Source of the DNA: an uncultured delta proteobacterium
GTDB lineage: Bacteria; Desulfobacterota; BSN033; UBA1163
Direction of reading: 5' to 3'
Length of the DNA: 64,000 nt
NCBI GenBank assembly: GCA_963826305.1
Contig: CAWGWZ010000001.1
Location: forward strand, 19,577-83,576
Shown here in pieces: positions 33,468 to 39,557 of the stretch. Below the pieces are notes generated by a model, which did no database searches, was not told the DNA's origin, and saw only the letters and a list, made by a program, of their open reading frames with translations. Within the stretch, counting starts at the first letter, position 1. Each line of letters opens with the position of its first letter. A program made the translations under genes and the position numbers.

Positions 33468-36400
33468 ATGAAGAGACTCTATCTGGGCATCGATGTCGGT
33501 TCTGTGAGTGCTAATACCGTCATCATGGATGATCATCAGGAGGTGTTGGAGGAGCATTACACCCGAATCAAGGGCCAGCCTCTCCAAACTGTTCAGAAGA
33601 TATTGGAAGAGATCCTCCGACGGATCCCAATCGAACAGTTCCAGACGATTTCTTTTACAGGGATCGGAGGAAAACTTCTTTCAGAAATCTTGGGCGGGAA
33701 TTTCGTCAACGAGATTATTGCCCAGGCAAAGGCCGTTCAACATCTTTATCCCGAGGTCAGGACGATCATCGATATCGGGGGAGAGGACTCCAAACTCATC
33801 GTCGTTGAGGAGGAAGGAGGTCATCTCAAGATCAGCGACTTCTCAATGAATACCCTCTGCGCTGCCGGCACTGGATCCTTTCTGGATCAGCAGGCCAGCC
33901 GGCTGGGTCTGACGATTGAGGAATTTGGAGAGCTTGCCCTGAAATCAACGAACCCACCCCGCATTGCAGGACGGTGCAGCGTCTTCGCAAAATCGGATAT
34001 GATCCATCTGCAACAGATCGCCACACCGGATTACGACATCGTCGCTGGCCTCTGCTATGCCCTGGCAAGAAATTTCAAGAGCAACATCGGCAAGGGAAAG
34101 ACCTTTGTGAAGCCCATCTCCTTCCAAGGGGGTGTGGCGGCCAATGTGGGGATGCGAAGAGCCTTCATGGATGTCTTGGAGCTTTCCAACGGAGAGCTCA
34201 TCATCCCAAAATATTTTACTTCGATGGGAGCCATCGGCGCTATATGGGTGACGCACGAAAACAAAGAGAGCAAAAAGGGCTGGGCCGGCCTCAGCCGCCT
34301 GAACCAATATCTCCAAGAACATCAGGAAGAACAGACTACATTAAAGCGCCTCTGTCTCTCCTCCCGTCATCTCATTTCACCCCCACCGCAGCCCTCCCCC
34401 GTCAAGGGGGAGGGGAATAAGCTTGGTGTAGCAAGGGGAGAGAAGCCCGAGGCTTATCTCGGATTGGATGTGGGCTCGATCAGCACCAATCTGGTCGTGA
34501 TCGACCGCGAAAAGAGGGTTCTCTCCAAGCGATATCTGATGACCGCTGGACGACCTATCGAGGCGGTTCGCATCGGCCTTCAGGAGATTGGTGAGGAGAT
34601 TGGGGACCGGGTGGAGATCAAAGGGGTCGGAACGACCGGTTCCGGCCGTTACCTCACTGCAGATTTCGTCGGAGCGGATCTGGTGCGGAATGAAATTACC
34701 GCTCAGGCCACTGCAGCGGTTCACATCGACCCGGGCGTCGATACGATCTTTGAAATCGGAGGACAGGACTCAAAATATATCAGCCTCGACAATGGTGTGG
34801 TGGTTGATTTCGAGATGAACAAGGTTTGCGCGGCAGGGACCGGTTCTTTTCTGGAAGAGCAGGCTGAGAAACTGGATATTTCTATTAAGGAAGAATTTGG
34901 CGGACTTGCCCTCTCCGCCGCGGAGCCGGTGAGGATGGGCGAGCGGTGTACGGTATTCATCGAGTCCGATCTGGTCCATCACCAACAGAGGGGTGCCAAA
35001 AAGGATGACCTGGTTGCTGGGCTGAGTTACTCGATTGTTCAGAATTACCTTAACCGGGTGGTCGGAGACCGCCGGATCGGGACCCAAATCTTCTTCCAGG
35101 GTGGAACCGCTTTCAATAAAGGAGTGGTCGCTGCCTTTGAAAAGGTTCTCGATAAGGAGATCATCGTTCCTGAAAATCACGATGTGACAGGCGCGATCGG
35201 GGTCGCCATTTTGGCCTTGGAGGAGCGGACCTGGGAGAGATCAAGTTTCAAAGGATTTGACTTGAGCCAGCGCCGGTATGAACAATCCTCCTTTGAATGC
35301 AAGGGTTGTCCCAATCTCTGCCTCATCCGAAAAGTAAGCGTGGAAGGAGAGAAACCCCTCTTTTATGGAAGCCGATGTGAGAAGTACGATGTCATTAAAC
35401 GGACGAAGGGGTCAGACGTACCTGACCTCTTTAGTGAAAGGGAGAAGATGCTTTTTGCTCCCTATGAAGGGGAGGAGCAGCTTCCTCAAAATGCCCCGGA
35501 GATTGGGGTACCCAGGATTCTTTATTTTCACGAGATGTTTCCTTTCTGGAGAGCATTCTTTACGGAACTGGGTTATCGCGTCATTCTTTCCGATGCGACG
35601 AACAAGGAACTGATTCGAAAAGGGGTGGAGAATGTTGTCTCGGAAACCTGTTTCCCTGTTAAAGTGAGCCATGGCCATGTCCTCAACCTTTTAGAAAAAG
35701 GTGTAAAGAAGATCTTTCTGCCGAGCATCGTCAACCTCAAACCTTCCCACCCGGAAATCCCAAATACCTCTGCTTGTCCTTATGCACAATCCTTCCCCTA
35801 TGCTGTTCCTTCGTCCATCGATTTCAAGAGGAAGGATGTGAAGATCCTTCAGCCTATCCTCCACTTGGGTTTTGGGAGAGAATATTTAGAGAAGGAACTG
35901 ATCCAGTTTGGTGAATCACTCCACCGAGGATCCAAGCGAATGAAGAAGGCGCTGGAGAAGGCCGAAAGATTCCAGGCCCAGTTTTATCAATCCCTACTCC
36001 ATCGTGGAAAAGAGGTTTTGGATCGGGTTGACCCCAACGATAAGGTCATGGTGATCGTGGGGAGGCCTTACAACTCCTGTGACTCAGCGGTGAACCTTGA
36101 GATTCCAAAAAAACTGCGAGATTTAGGGGTGCTGGCCATTCCCATGGACTTTCTTCCTCTGGAATCTGTTGCACCTTCTGAAGAGATTCGGGAGATGTAT
36201 TGGCGATACGGCCAGAGGATCTTGGCCGCTGGAAAGATCATCAAAAAAGATCCCAGACTTTATGCGGTCTATATTACTAATTTTGGTTGCGGCCCGGATT
36301 CTTTCATCACCCATTTCTTCAGGGATTTATCCAAAGGGAAGCCCTATCTCCAATTGGAAATCGATGAGCACAGCGCGGATGCAGGGGCCATCACACGATG

Positions 36401-37679
36401 CGAAGCCTTCTTAGATAGCTTGAAAAATGTGGAGGTGAAACCGGTTCCCTCTTTGAGAAGAGAGAAGGCAAAGACCGACCGAACCAAAAAGATTTACATT
36501 CCCTATATGTGTGATCATTCCTTTGCTGTCGCAGCGGCTTTCAAGGCTTGTGGCGTAGACGCCGATGTCTTCCCTGAATCGGACGAAGAAACGCTTTATT
36601 GGGGAAGAAAACTCACCTCAGGCAAAGAATGTTATCCCTGTATCCTGACCACGGGCGATATGGTCAAGTTGGTGAAGGATCCTCATTTTGATCACCAGCG
36701 GGCCGCCTTCTTCATGCCCTCTGGTAATGGACCTTGCCGGTTTGGACAATACCATCGCTTTCATCGCCTCGTTCTGGATGACTTGGGTTTTCACCATGTC
36801 CCCATCTACTCGCCCAATCAGGATGAAACGCTTTATAGTGACCTGGGCATCATGGGTTCTCAATTCACCCGCTTGGGGTGGCAGGGAATTGTCGCGGTGG
36901 ACCTCTTGATGAAAAAACTCTTGGAGACCCGGCCCTACGAGAAGGAGAAGGGGAAAACGGATCAGGTCTATCAGGAGTCTTTAAACAGAGTCTGCGAAGC
37001 GATCCTCAAGGGAGACGATTTGGAAGAAGCTCTTCAGAAGAGCATCGAGGATTTCAATCAGATTGAGGTGGATGGACTGGGAACAAAGCCCCTGATTGGA
37101 ATTGTCGGAGAGATCTTTGTTCGGCTCAACCGGTTTGCCAATGAGAACGTCATCCGAAAGATCGAACAGTTTGGAGGAGAGGCATGGATCGCCCCTCTGA
37201 CGGAATGGATTCTCTATGTCAACACCATTGCCAAAAAGAGGAGTCTCAAAAATAGATCCTTTTCGAATCTTTTAAAAGTTTTTTTTACAGACTATTATCA
37301 GAAGAAGGACGAACACCATTTAGAGGAAGTATTTAAACACCACCTCAGAAACTTTGGTGAGCCAAAAACCAAATCCATTTTCAGAAATGCCAAGCCTTAT
37401 TTGGATTCCTCCTTTGAAGGAGAAGCGATCCTCTCCGTTGGAAAGACGATCGATTTTGCCAAAAGGGGCGCCAGTGGAATTGTCAATATCATGCCATTTA
37501 CTTGCATGCCTGGGACGATTGTGAGCACCTTACTTAAACGATATCGAGAAGAAAATAGTAATATCCCCATCCTCAACATGGCTTATGATGGGCAGGAGCA
37601 AACCAACACATTAACCCGCCTTGAAGCCTTCATGTATCAAGCCAAGGAATTCCAAAACAGAAAGAATAAGGCAATTTAA
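33468..37679 (+). CDS. CoA-substrate-specific enzyme activase (two BadF/BadG/BcrA/BcrD domains + DUF2229)
   Basis: GIDVGS/GLDVGS twice, DIGGEDSK/EIGGQDSK, CAAGTGSFL twice, CFPVKV, CGPDS, CRFGQY, PFTCMP. Confidence 0.92.
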   Translation: MKRLYLGIDVGSVSANTVIMDDHQEVLEEHYTRIKGQPLQTVQKILEEILRRIPIEQFQTISFTGIGGKLLSEILGGNFVNEIIAQAKAVQHLYPEVRTIIDIGGEDSKLIVVEEEGGHLKISDFSMNTLCAAGTGSFLDQQASRLGLTIEEFGELALKSTNPPRIAGRCSVFAKSDMIHLQQIATPDYDIVAGLCYALARNFKSNIGKGKTFVKPISFQGGVAANVGMRRAFMDVLELSNGELIIPKYFTSMGAIGAIWVTHENKESKKGWAGLSRLNQYLQEHQEEQTTLKRLCLSSRHLISPPPQPSPVKGEGNKLGVARGEKPEAYLGLDVGSISTNLVVIDREKRVLSKRYLMTAGRPIEAVRIGLQEIGEEIGDRVEIKGVGTTGSGRYLTADFVGADLVRNEITAQATAAVHIDPGVDTIFEIGGQDSKYISLDNGVVVDFEMNKVCAAGTGSFLEEQAEKLDISIKEEFGGLALSAAEPVRMGERCTVFIESDLVHHQQRGAKKDDLVAGLSYSIVQNYLNRVVGDRRIGTQIFFQGGTAFNKGVVAAFEKVLDKEIIVPENHDVTGAIGVAILALEERTWERSSFKGFDLSQRRYEQSSFECKGCPNLCLIRKVSVEGEKPLFYGSRCEKYDVIKRTKGSDVPDLFSEREKMLFAPYEGEEQLPQNAPEIGVPRILYFHEMFPFWRAFFTELGYRVILSDATNKELIRKGVENVVSETCFPVKVSHGHVLNLLEKGVKKIFLPSIVNLKPSHPEIPNTSACPYAQSFPYAVPSSIDFKRKDVKILQPILHLGFGREYLEKELIQFGESLHRGSKRMKKALEKAERFQAQFYQSLLHRGKEVLDRVDPNDKVMVIVGRPYNSCDSAVNLEIPKKLRDLGVLAIPMDFLPLESVAPSEEIREMYWRYGQRILAAGKIIKKDPRLYAVYITNFGCGPDSFITHFFRDLSKGKPYLQLEIDEHSADAGAITRCEAFLDSLKNVEVKPVPSLRREKAKTDRTKKIYIPYMCDHSFAVAAAFKACGVDADVFPESDEETLYWGRKLTSGKECYPCILTTGDMVKLVKDPHFDHQRAAFFMPSGNGPCRFGQYHRFHRLVLDDLGFHHVPIYSPNQDETLYSDLGIMGSQFTRLGWQGIVAVDLLMKKLLETRPYEKEKGKTDQVYQESLNRVCEAILKGDDLEEALQKSIEDFNQIEVDGLGTKPLIGIVGEIFVRLNRFANENVIRKIEQFGGEAWIAPLTEWILYVNTIAKKRSLKNRSFSNLLKVFFTDYYQKKDEHHLEEVFKHHLRNFGEPKTKSIFRNAKPYLDSSFEGEAILSVGKTIDFAKRGASGIVNIMPFTCMPGTIVSTLLKRYREENSNIPILNMAYDGQEQTNTLTRLEAFMYQAKEFQNRKNKAI
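34377..34416. repeat. In-frame palindromic repeat inside the activase interdomain linker
   Basis: CCCTCCCCC-GTCAA-GGGGGAGGG perfect 9-bp stem encoding SPPPQPSPVKGEG. Confidence 0.7.
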
Positions 37680-37740
37680 CTCCTCGAAATTTAAGGATAT
37701 TTATTTTTTATCCACTTTGTTAAAAAAATCACTTTTTTTA

Positions 37741-37770
37741 TTGACTTTTTTAAAAGGGGAATGATATAAG
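37741..37770 (+). promoter_or_regulatory. Sigma70-like promoter
   Basis: TTGACT-18 nt-TATAAG with an extended -10 TG. Confidence 0.5.
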
Positions 37771-37804
37771 GTGAATCAGTATTACCAATATAAGATCTCG
37801 AAAT

Positions 37805-38107
37805 ATGAAATGGATTCAATTTGTACTGATTCTTTTTTTACTTCCGGGTCTTCCTCTGTTTCAAATGGACCAGGCCATTGATATTGGTTGGTTAGTTTGC
37901 GAAAACTCCCTTGTTACAAAATCAGAAATGAATGATCCTTCTATCGAACAGAATTTATGGTTCGACTTAGAACCTCCATCTTATTTTTTCAATCAAGTTA
38001 AATTTTTCTTTCAATTGAAGAACCCTTTATCTGTTTTACTTTCCTATTTTCAGGGGACCTCTCCTTTCTGGAGACCTCCTCCTGACTTTTATCCTTCCTC
38101 GTCTTGA
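37805..38107 (+). CDS. Leader ORF with signal-like N-terminus and C-terminal RPPP motif (candidate arrest peptide)
   Basis: MKWIQFVLILFLLPGLPLF...SPFWRPPPDFYPSSS; directly upstream of oadG-oadB. Confidence 0.65.
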   Translation: MKWIQFVLILFLLPGLPLFQMDQAIDIGWLVCENSLVTKSEMNDPSIEQNLWFDLEPPSYFFNQVKFFFQLKNPLSVLLSYFQGTSPFWRPPPDFYPSSS

Positions 38108-38174
38108 TCACCCTTTAAAAGGGAAGGGGTTCCAGATTTAAATGAGGACCTTTCCATACATTATCAGGAGGTAA

Positions 38175-38315
38175 ATGGATATGAAGATGGATAATTGGAC
38201 ATTCGGAATTTCAATGATCGTCGTTGGAATGGGAGGAACACTCCTGACACTCTGGATCTTGAGCCTGTGCATGAGTGTTCTAAAAAAGTTCTTCCCTTAT
38301 AGAAAAGAAGAATAG
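38175..38315 (+). CDS. oadG: OadG/GcdD-like small membrane subunit of a Na+-translocating decarboxylase
   Basis: 46 aa MDMKMDNWTFGISMIVVGMGGTLLTLWILSLCMSVLKKFFPYRKEE; AGGAGG RBS; precedes the beta subunit; absent from the ORF track. Confidence 0.8.
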   Translation: MDMKMDNWTFGISMIVVGMGGTLLTLWILSLCMSVLKKFFPYRKEE

Positions 38316-38345
38316 GGCAAGTACGCAAAAAAGGAGGGATCAAAC

Positions 38346-39485
38346 ATGTTAGATGCGATTTTAGGCGGATTGAATGGACTCATTGCGGGATTTGTCAGTC
38401 TCCATTGGTCTAATCCGGTCATGATTATAGTAGGACTCATTCTCCTTTATTTAGGTATCAAGAAAGATTTTGAGCCATTACTCCTTGTGCCCATAGGGTT
38501 TGGGTGCATCCTGGTTAATATTCCATTGGCTGGGCTTATGGAGGAAGGAGGCTTTCTCAAAATCATCTATGATGCAGGTGTCTTAACGGAGGTATTTCCT
38601 CTTCTCATATTTGTCGGGATTGGTGCGATGACCGATTTTGGCCCTCTTCTGGAGAATCCGAAGATTTTCCTACTTGGAGCGGCAGGACAATTTGGGATTT
38701 TTCTAACTTTGGCATTAGCATTGGCTTTAGGTTTTACAAAGTTGGAAGCTGTCTCCATCGGGATCATCGGTGCCTGCGATGGCCCGACTGCGATTTATGT
38801 CACCTCTAAGTATGCTCCTCACCTCTTAGGTGCCGTCTCCGTAGCCGCCTATTCCTATATGTCTTTGGTCCCTGTTTTTCAGCCTCCTATTATGAAGCTT
38901 CTCACCACTAAGAAAGAAAGGATGATCAATATGGGGGTCGTTAGAAAGTCGGCTTCAAAAACGACGAAGATCCTCTTTCCCTTAGTGGTTACAGTCATAG
39001 GAGGCCTCATCGCACCCAAAGGGTTGATCCTTTTGGGAACGATTATGTTGGGAAATCTCATGAAGGAGTGCGGGGTCGTGAGCCGACTCACCAAGGCTTC
39101 TGAAAATGAAATTGCAAACATTGTTACTCTCCTTTTGGGAATCTCCATCGGAGCGACCATGGATGGCAAGGTGTTTATAACACCCCAGACACTGATCATC
39201 CTGGCACTGGGATTTTTGGCCATCTGCCTCGATACAGCCTGTGGTGTTTTGTTTGGAAAAGTGATGAATTTTTTATCAGGCGGCAAGATTAATCCTCTCA
39301 TCGGAGCAGCCGGGATTTCAGCCTATCCGATGTCAGCAAGAGTGGTCCAAAAGGAAGGCCAAAAATATAATCCCAAAAATTATCTCCTGATGCATGCCAT
39401 GGGATCCAACACCGGTGGCCAAGTTGGTTCTGTAATGGCCGCAGCGGTCATGCTCTCGATTCTGAAAGGCATGGGGATCATCTGA
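38346..39485 (+). CDS. oadB: Sodium ion-translocating decarboxylase beta subunit (OadB/GcdB/MmdB)
   Basis: EPLLLVPIGFG, GAMTDFGPL, GIIGACDGPT, AAYSYMSLVP, NPLIGAAG. Confidence 0.95.
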   Translation: MLDAILGGLNGLIAGFVSLHWSNPVMIIVGLILLYLGIKKDFEPLLLVPIGFGCILVNIPLAGLMEEGGFLKIIYDAGVLTEVFPLLIFVGIGAMTDFGPLLENPKIFLLGAAGQFGIFLTLALALALGFTKLEAVSIGIIGACDGPTAIYVTSKYAPHLLGAVSVAAYSYMSLVPVFQPPIMKLLTTKKERMINMGVVRKSASKTTKILFPLVVTVIGGLIAPKGLILLGTIMLGNLMKECGVVSRLTKASENEIANIVTLLLGISIGATMDGKVFITPQTLIILALGFLAICLDTACGVLFGKVMNFLSGGKINPLIGAAGISAYPMSARVVQKEGQKYNPKNYLLMHAMGSNTGGQVGSVMAAAVMLSILKGMGII

Positions 39486-39557
39486 TTTTGATTGTGGAAC
39501 GCAAAAAACGAAGGGCGGGGGGTAATCTTCCCGCTCTTTTTATTCTAAAGGAGTAAA

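Follow-up and report, generated by a model that had tools for sequence, protein, structure and literature searches.

A conserved leader ending in R-x-P-P ahead of oadG-oadB: a candidate translation-arrest peptide for a Na+-translocating decarboxylase

Introduction

Why should a small protein of no recognisable family, hydrophobic at its N-terminus and ending in a motif associated with stalled ribosomes, be encoded directly ahead of the membrane subunits of a Na+-translocating decarboxylase? The locus that raises this question lies in a 64,000-nt stretch of genome G000 (hereafter the window, meaning the whole of the stretch that was analysed), in which a 100-aa leader open reading frame (ORF), closed by a TGA stop codon at 38105-07 as read from the window sequence, precedes an oadG-related gene and oadB. 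An initial annotation of this DNA had proposed an arrest-peptide switch, whereby a ribosome stalled near the end of the leader would release the oadG Shine-Dalgarno (SD) sequence from pairing with the leader's own Pro-Pro-Asp codons. Its description of the locus was sound: the 100-aa ORF, the hydrophobic N-terminus, the SPFW-RPPP end, the 67-nt gap before oadG, the exact 8-nt complement and an imperfect hairpin at about 38122-38155 are all present, and the gene names oadG and oadB are borne out by matches to NF040909, OAD_beta and TIGR01109. The switch itself divides into two parts: comparison of related sequences supports a conserved leader with a hydrophobic N-terminus that ends in R-x-P-P before oadG-oadB, but not the pairing of its Pro-Pro-Asp codons with the SD.

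RAPP-like arrest leaders first came to light in front of Sec/YidC genes and, more recently, in front of metal-homeostasis, redox-folding and sigma-factor genes too. According to Fujiwara et al. (2025, EMBO J; PMC12992588), whose survey validated seven in Streptomyces lividans, RAPP-like motifs are depleted in proteomes and concentrated near the C-termini of small secretory or membrane proteins. The same paper reports the motif's Arg to be irreplaceable in ApcA, ApdA, ApdP and SecM; at the x position Gly is fully tolerated and Ser, Asp and Pro partly so, with arrest near wild type in B. subtilis for the A132P variant of ApdP, and older random-library screens are said there to have yielded R-x-P-P with x = G, A, S or P. 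Morici et al. (2024; PMC10951233) describe the Arg side chain as buried in a pocket of the 23S rRNA, with contacts at x made by the backbone only.

A leader gene tied to oadG-oadB

Judged by its pattern of substitution, the 100-aa ORF is a genuine gene. Pairwise comparison of 77 distinct coding sequences gave ratios of nonsynonymous to synonymous substitution rates (dN/dS) of 0.18 for residues 1-24, 0.34 for residues 25-75 and 0.17 for residues 76-93, with dS at 0.65-0.77 throughout; the frame is therefore translated and under selection. Relatives are readily found within a narrow range: in a word-indexed search 218 of 220 candidate proteins match the leader at E<=0.01, none of them carrying a Pfam domain or an informative name, and a profile search of 1.84 billion cluster representatives returned only 32 leader clusters at 50% identity. 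Profile searches found no Pfam (E<=0.1), NCBIfam or PDB-sequence relative. The leader is restricted to Syntrophaceae-like genomes, its records being assigned to Syntrophaceae, Thermodesulfobacteriota or 'delta proteobacterium' metagenome-assembled genomes (MAGs), and in a set of 41 related genomes the window's own family alone has full-length copies.

The association of the leader with oadG-oadB is strict. Metagenome loci were picked via two N-terminal peptide patterns, and their C-termini are therefore an unbiased sample; 91 were examined (L001-L007 and L011-L094, with L001 the window's own), one of which ends before the motif, leaving 90. In 88 of these, oadG lies directly 3' of the leader, and the contigs of the other two stop 10 and 54 nt past the leader stop. 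The distance from leader stop to oadG start is 56-98 nt in 86 of the 88 loci that reach oadG; in the window the first oadG ATG, at 38175, stands 67 nt past the leader stop. The distribution of the leader across genomes is patchy, as that of arrest peptides is reported to be: of 18 family genomes whose oadB is orthologous (83-100% identity), 7 have the leader and 10 have no leader-like ORF 5' of oadG, 8 of these 10 keeping the activase-oadG-oadB gene order. Genome G022 (L109) stands outside this count, its anchor being a second, paralogous beta-subunit gene. A leader-like match in G008 (residues 14-77, with two internal TAG codons) was set aside as a fragment or chance remnant, lying on a different contig from oadB with no oadG nearby, and joints in a DNA run that skip the leader region were not used as evidence, their sides being short (21-54 nt) and of 85% likeness. 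Locus L004 (G014:C329) has an in-frame stop right past the signal sequence, at a conserved Gln, and a K-P-P-P motif, with oadG and oadB intact; either this leader is decaying, it would seem, or the assembly is at fault (the MAG has 8% contamination).

The N-terminus of the leader consists of Lys2, some 15 hydrophobic residues (stretch 4-19) and then a conserved F-Q-x-D-Q-A, and its columns (residues 1-24) are 85-98% conserved. In an AF2 model of the leader the N-terminal helix alone is confident (pLDDT 83 then 71), overall values being pLDDT 59 and pTM 0.21. This segment is a candidate export or insertion signal, cleaved or uncleaved. The moderately conserved middle of some 50 residues (25-75) is more than a spacer and may have a function of its own.

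The C-terminal R-x-P-P module

The strongest constraint in the protein falls on its C-terminal module, G-[T/S]-S-P-F-W-R-[P/A/S]-P-P, and the tail that follows is unconstrained. Among the 77 distinct leaders conservation peaks from G84 to P93 (F88, R90 and P92 at 100%; P87, P91 and P93 at 97-98%), residue 94 is the least conserved column of the whole leader (major residue 31%), and dN/dS is 0.10 in the motif core as against 0.51 in the tail. Tails range from 1 to about 50 residues in length. The window's leader ends ...SPFW-RPPP-DFYPSSS, its motif occupying residues 90-93 of 100, 7 from the end, and encoded by AGA (38072-74) and three CCT codons (38075-77, 38078-80 and 38081-83) followed by GAC (38084-86). 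Codons past the stall point would be irrelevant to arrest, which would explain the drift of the tail.

Conservation of R-x-P-P 5' of oadG in related loci had been set beforehand as a check on the arrest-leader proposal, and the check came out in its favour: the 90 loci comprise RPPP in 86, RPPT in 2, RSPP in 1 and KPPP in 1 (4 cases being read by eye). Among 32 divergent representatives, 6 are truncated or frame-shifted and the 26 intact ones divide into RPPP 22, RSPP 2, RAPP 1 and KPPP 1; RAPP is present in P0094 and P0124. The motif's Arg is thus kept in 89 of 90 loci and in 25 of 26 intact representatives. An x position occupied by Pro, Ala or Ser, a near-invariant Arg and the retention of both following prolines fit what the RAP/P stall mechanism predicts, and the family collected, with its roughly 90 natural variants, already amounts to a mutational scan of the motif. 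In the long ORFs of the genome R-x-P-P is scarce (RPPP 6, RAPP 0, RGPP 2, RSPP 3; compare APPP 40 and AAPP 15).

The leader therefore has the features that define the class, namely a C-terminal R-x-P-P with its Arg kept, in a small protein with an unconserved tail and an adjacent same-strand gene 3' of it, and we regard it, with a probability of roughly 0.65, as a RAPP-like (RxPP) translation-arrest leader. The ribosome would stall at the C-terminal RxPP module, with its P site, on the precedent of ApdA and ApdP, at 38078-80. How long it paused would be set by the fate of the N-terminal part already emerged, that is by its export, its insertion or its folding outside the cell, as in SecM, MifM, VemP, ApdA/ApdP and CruR, and the pause would in turn set expression of the downstream OadG/OadB pump subunits, such that the leader probably acts as a built-in sensor tuning pump production. 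Stalling, its register, release by export and the sign of regulation are here inferred by analogy with those systems.

Several observations weigh against this reading. A run of three prolines is normally relieved by elongation factor P (EF-P). Lys replaces the reportedly irreplaceable Arg in L004 and P0135, and Thr occupies the predicted A-site position in L049 and L066. The middle of the leader is itself under purifying selection (dN/dS 0.34), and no recognisable SD precedes the leader ATG (37790-37804), although in many loci the 15-20 nt leading up to it are conserved. Pro at x is reported to give only partial arrest in ApdA, and in ApdP in E. coli (PMC12992588). At the level of RNA, the intergenic hairpin excludes the SD and starts about 29 nt past the point that a ribosome stalled at 38078-83 should reach on its 3' side, and neither in silico folding nor alignment revealed a conserved SD-masking structure that could be opened by a ribosome at the stall site.

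Coupling to oadG

On how a pause at the end of the leader might reach oadG, the initial annotation does not stand up to comparison of related sequences. It had envisaged direct unmasking of the SecM kind, in which pairing between UCAGGAGG and the CCUCCUGA of the Pro-Pro-Asp codons keeps the oadG SD hidden until a stalled ribosome sets it free. The complement is real, CCTCCTGA (38078-85) being the exact reverse complement of TCAGGAGG (38164-71), which contains the oadG SD, and this anti-SD octamer would sit inside the stalled ribosome; as a conserved feature, however, it is no more than chance, and six of its 8 letters arise because two CCT Pro codons face a consensus SD. Covarying anti-SD/SD pairing across relatives, which the proposal had called for, failed to appear: 8 contiguous Watson-Crick pairs form in 1 of 74 distinct sequences (the window only), and at least 6 pairs in 15 of 74 (20%), compared with 28% in a control that draws the three Pro codons afresh from background usage. 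Shorter matches do exceed their controls, with at least 5 contiguous pairs in 56 of 74 sequences (76%) versus 51% on synonymous resampling, and CCUCC in 52 of 74 versus an expected 49%, but the small CCU/CCUCC excess and that of the pairings of at least 5 bp may be inseparable from shared ancestry, and the 22 of 74 sequences that lack CCUCC still keep the leader and its motif. Synonymous variation runs through the Pro codons (56 CCC and 14 CCT at the first; 45 CCT, 12 CCA, 10 CCG and 7 CCC at the second; a mixture at the third), and dS in the motif core, at 0.77, is as high as elsewhere, which indicates no constraint at the nucleotide level.

Folding leads to the same place. Over 72 sequences RNAalifold found 9 weak pairs, zero of them covarying, with a consensus of -2.9 kcal/mol that does contain a long-range CC.CC:GG.GG contact from the Pro codons to the SD. 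In the fold of 38050-38200 (z -1.06) the minimum free energy structure pairs the octamer with 38050-57 upstream, and not with the SD as had been supposed, and in partition-function folds the pairing of SD with RPPP codons has a probability of 0.00 in the window's own locus and of 0.04 on average. When a footprint the size of a stalled ribosome is held unpaired, SD accessibility goes up from 0.12 to 0.18, with a gain above 0.3 in only 6 of 75 sequences. The SD is unpaired with a probability of 0.13 in the real sequences and 0.15 with shuffled sequence upstream, and comparison with the oadB SD likewise gave no sign of specific masking; folding predicts a paired GGAGG wherever the surroundings are rich in pyrimidines. 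Taken with the sequence comparisons, this makes direct unmasking quite improbable.

What is found between leader and oadG is a hairpin, with a purine-rich, SD-like 5' arm and a pyrimidine-rich, anti-SD-like 3' arm that stops 10 nt short of the SD. When the intergenic regions were folded one sequence at a time, z averaged -1.59 and was under -2 in 29 of 72. Because the MAFFT alignment misregisters the hairpin between subgroups, a covariance model (R1) was built from 26 sequences; it recognises 55 of the 72 loci with a leader and none of the 10 without. In an alignment fitted to the model's own structure, 88% of cells are paired, 8 of 10 pairs are changed on both sides, and the covariation score is 0.261 as against 0.200 +/- 0.013 for shuffles (none of 500 as high) and 0.08-0.145 with the partners slid, from which the hairpin appears to be conserved with compensatory changes. 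Leaderless relatives among L098-L112 (G018, G015, G003, G016, G017, G004, G008 and G007) have an OadB 83-88% identical and the activase-oadG-oadB order; these lack both the leader and a match to the hairpin model, and the two were therefore apparently gained or lost together.

A ribosome stalled with its P site at 38078-80 is expected to cover the mRNA as far as about 38093 and therefore cannot melt the hairpin directly. Our best guess is that the paused ribosome would instead shift the pairing choices of the hairpin (38122-38155), whose arms mimic SD and anti-SD, in a three-way competition: were the leader's pyrimidine-rich end (Pro codons and tail) free to pair with the SD-like 5' arm, the anti-SD-like 3' arm would be released and could mask the true SD, and a paused ribosome would keep the first of these pairings from forming. 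Alternatively, by analogy with CruR, the paused ribosome could shield the transcript from Rho; a mild C>G skew (0.13-0.165 over the leader's last 100 nt), which lies inside the translated region, could be compatible with such a read-out.

In L043 and L069, contigs from different data sets, the leader stop is lost and the ORF reads some 35 codons through hairpin and SD, ending at a TAA that overlaps oadG codons 3-4, with oadG itself normal; a ribosome escaping arrest there would finish on the oadG start.

Alternative explanations

That the whole ORF is under purifying selection, its body at the dN/dS of 0.34 given above, and that residues outside the motif are conserved (D26, W29, C32, E33, K39, K72 and N73), would also suit a working small exported or membrane protein, such as an accessory or assembly factor of the decarboxylase, in which RPPP is functional in the mature protein and no arrest takes place. 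The gene adjoins two membrane-subunit genes, and RAPP-like motifs in ordinary proteins are reported mostly not to stall (PMC10987492). Such a protein would nevertheless be dispensable in close relatives with the same gene order and OadB 83-88% identical, and its length and sequence are free right after the motif, as is uncommon where a C-terminal motif is structural. No confident AF2 fold extends past the N-terminal helix, the searches described above found no Pfam, NCBIfam or PDB relative, and an arrest motif that was defined by experiment, and that is avoided in proteomes, agrees with this one in sequence and in the substitutions allowed. We consider a working protein without arrest quite unlikely, although the two roles are compatible with each other.

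Proline-codon leaders such as mgtP are the model for a different kind of attenuator, in which the Pro codons would sense EF-P activity or charged tRNA-Pro and export of the nascent chain would be uninvolved. PPP and PPD are classic EF-P-dependent pause motifs, the window has three Pro codons followed by Asp, and the C>G skew of the leader's end would suit a read-out by Rho. For the counting of codons, however, the invariant Arg and the S-P-F-W before it are superfluous, as is a 90-residue conserved body with a signal sequence, and Ala or Ser at x (RAPP, RSPP) breaks the triple proline. RAPP-type arrest is moreover reported to be EF-P-resistant (PMC12992588), and a polyproline attenuator seems to us highly improbable.

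Relation to known arrest peptides and wider significance

Set beside the arrest peptides already described, the leader is likely to be a further member of the RxPP class, new in its natural RPPP core, its downstream target and its apparent lack of an SD-masking stem. SecM and MifM resemble it in layout, with a localisation signal at the N-terminus and an arrest point at the C-terminal end, both putative in the leader, and an SD further on that lies within structured RNA, and MifM, at about 95 aa, is close to it in size. They regulate Sec/YidC via an SD-sequestering stem with its 5' arm at the stall site, which was not found here, and in contrast to the Sec/YidC monitoring substrates the downstream genes here encode an OadG-related protein and a decarboxylase beta subunit, not localisation machinery. 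ApdA and ApdP are reportedly RAPP arrest peptides encoded 5' of secDF, and are said to have been described by Sakiyama in 2021. Like the leader, with its putative signal, they combine a signal peptide with a C-terminal R-x-P-P, and the residues N-terminal to the motif are family-specific (PMC10951233), here S-P-F-W; they differ in that there is no similarity outside the motif, that the gene downstream of the leader is not a Sec gene and that x is here Pro, not Ala.

The RAPP-like class as described in PMC12992588 is alike in its small size (<300 aa), N-terminal signal or transmembrane (TM) segment (a putative one in the leader), C-terminal R-x-P-P and restriction to particular lineages, in its position directly 5' of a gene unrelated to protein localisation, and in its tolerance of Pro or Ser at x. 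That survey took RAPP and RGPP only, whereas the natural core here is RPPP, and the genes downstream here encode membrane subunits of a Na+-translocating decarboxylase; 'decarboxylase' has 0 occurrences in the paper's main text. CruR of Bordetella pertussis (DUF2946) is likewise a RAPP-ending upstream ORF (uORF) heading a non-Sec operon, where arrest is reported to keep the downstream genes expressed and the nascent protein to perceive the signal (PMC9426467). It differs in sensing copper by a CXXC motif and in acting via Rho-dependent termination (PMC9426467); the leader has one conserved Cys (C32) and no DUF2946 or other Pfam match (E<=0.1). VemP of Vibrio alginolyticus is an exported leader whose arrest reports the activity of Na+-driven SecDF and induces the paralogue SecD2/F2 through an intergenic stem-loop (PMC7793623), and is the nearest precedent linking nascent-chain arrest to Na+ energetics. 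Its arrest motif is unrelated; here the target would be a Na+ pump and the hairpin does not include the SD.

The initial annotation knew of no such leader for oadG/oadB, and literature searches agree: they found no leader or arrest peptide for oadG/oadB or any Na+-translocating decarboxylase, with supplementary and figure gene lists (Fig. 4 and Appendix Fig. S2 of PMC12992588; Supplementary Data of PMC10987492) outside their scope.

Should the leader prove to be an arrest peptide, the arrest-leader principle would reach core energy conservation in syntrophic anaerobes, which live near the thermodynamic limit; in Syntrophus aciditrophicus, a cultured relative, a glutaconyl-CoA decarboxylase of the same enzyme family has been reported (PMC7145394). 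A more specific form of the arrest-leader reading, tentative and rather doubtful, would have the nascent leader serve as a gauge of how well the membrane is energised: its export would rely on the Na+ or ion-motive force, and as that force fell, export would slow, RPPP arrest would lengthen and more OadG/OadB be made. An energy-starved syntroph would then steady its Na+ gradient by translational feedback without a dedicated sensor protein, and this would be the first arrest peptide to control a primary bioenergetic ion pump, with VemP-like logic applied to the pump and not to SecDF. In either form the locus, which is easy to clone, could serve to ask whether a natural RPPP core stalls ribosomes in spite of EF-P, what an exported 65-residue domain might sense, and how arrest is coupled to a downstream gene without an SD-masking stem.

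Organisation of the locus and neighbouring genes

The leader appears to head a three-gene unit, leader-oadG-oadB, with its own promoter-like site and terminator-like hairpin (Table 1). The promoter-like site, of putative function, is conserved across related leader loci; a consensus promoter scan missed it because its -10 ends in G. The A/T-rich element just before it is near-identical in 15 of 16 diverse leader loci (L058 deviates at several positions), and its translation artefact, FVKKITFLL, is found 5' of oadG in the leaderless relatives L099, L100 and L106 as well; the element could be an UP element or a (shared) regulator site. An Rfam scan of 37500-38500 returned only a chance miRNA match (E 0.73).

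Table 1. Coordinates of features at the leader-oadG-oadB locus
Feature	Position	Strand	Remarks
Conserved A/T-rich element, 19 nt	37714..37732	+	just 5' of the -35 hexamer
Promoter-like site	37741..37770	+	TTGACT 37741-46; extended -10-like TGATATAAG 37762-70; 18-nt gap counted to TATAAG
Leader gene, candidate RxPP-type arrest peptide, 100 aa	37805..38107	+	
N-terminal hydrophobic signal or anchor, residues 1-24	37805..37876	+	
Candidate arrest module, residues 84-93, G-T-S-P-F-W-R-P-P-P	38054..38083	+	
Anti-SD octamer CCTCCTGA within the Pro-Pro-Asp codons	38078..38085	+	
Variable tail and stop codon	38084..38107	+	
Conserved intergenic hairpin	38122..38155	+	arms 38122-31 (5') and 38146-55 (3')
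oadG Shine-Dalgarno AGGAGG	38166..38171	+	GGAGG invariant, 72/72 aligned sequences
oadG-related small membrane subunit, 44 aa	38181..38315	+	alternative starts ATG 38175, ATG 38187
oadB/gcdB-type beta subunit of Na+-translocating decarboxylase, 379 aa	38346..39485	+	
Terminator-like hairpin and T run	39510..39539	+	13-pair stem, T-rich tail; putative function

The small ORF following the leader belongs to NCBIfam NF040909 (OadG_rel_small; 58.5 bits against a cut-off of 25) and matches Pfam OAD_gamma at 4e-4, under that family's cut-off; ATG 38181 is a more likely start than 38175 because its spacing from the SD is better. OadB matches Pfam OAD_beta at 6.3e-151 (502.8 bits against a cut-off of 31.6) and TIGR01109 at 450 bits (cut-off 190.6). 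With a beta-subunit match over the cut-off and a small gamma/delta-like TM subunit directly 5' of it, the pair has the hallmarks of the membrane module of a Na+-translocating decarboxylase, whose substrate would be oxaloacetate, glutaconyl-CoA or methylmalonyl-CoA. oadB is single-copy in genome G000, and carboxyltransferase genes lie on other contigs. In RNA run X20 short contigs, from relatives, cover parts of oadB only; a second RNA run gave none.

Upstream of the unit, at 33468-37679, lies a gene for a 1403-aa fusion of two BcrAD/BadFG ATPase domains and DUF2229, of the CoA-enzyme activase type, and such an activase fusion stands directly 5' of the oadGB unit in every case within the window's family.

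Outside the window, the same genome holds a second candidate arrest leader (G000:C22:384078-384395, minus strand) of 105 aa, which ends in N-R-A-P-P plus one residue and has a TM-like segment and a His/Cys-rich stretch. About 125 nt 3' of it is a gene for a 487-aa signal-peptide protein, followed by genes for a ZnuA-like binding protein and an ABC transporter, and the arrangement resembles that of the published metal-related RAPP uORFs.

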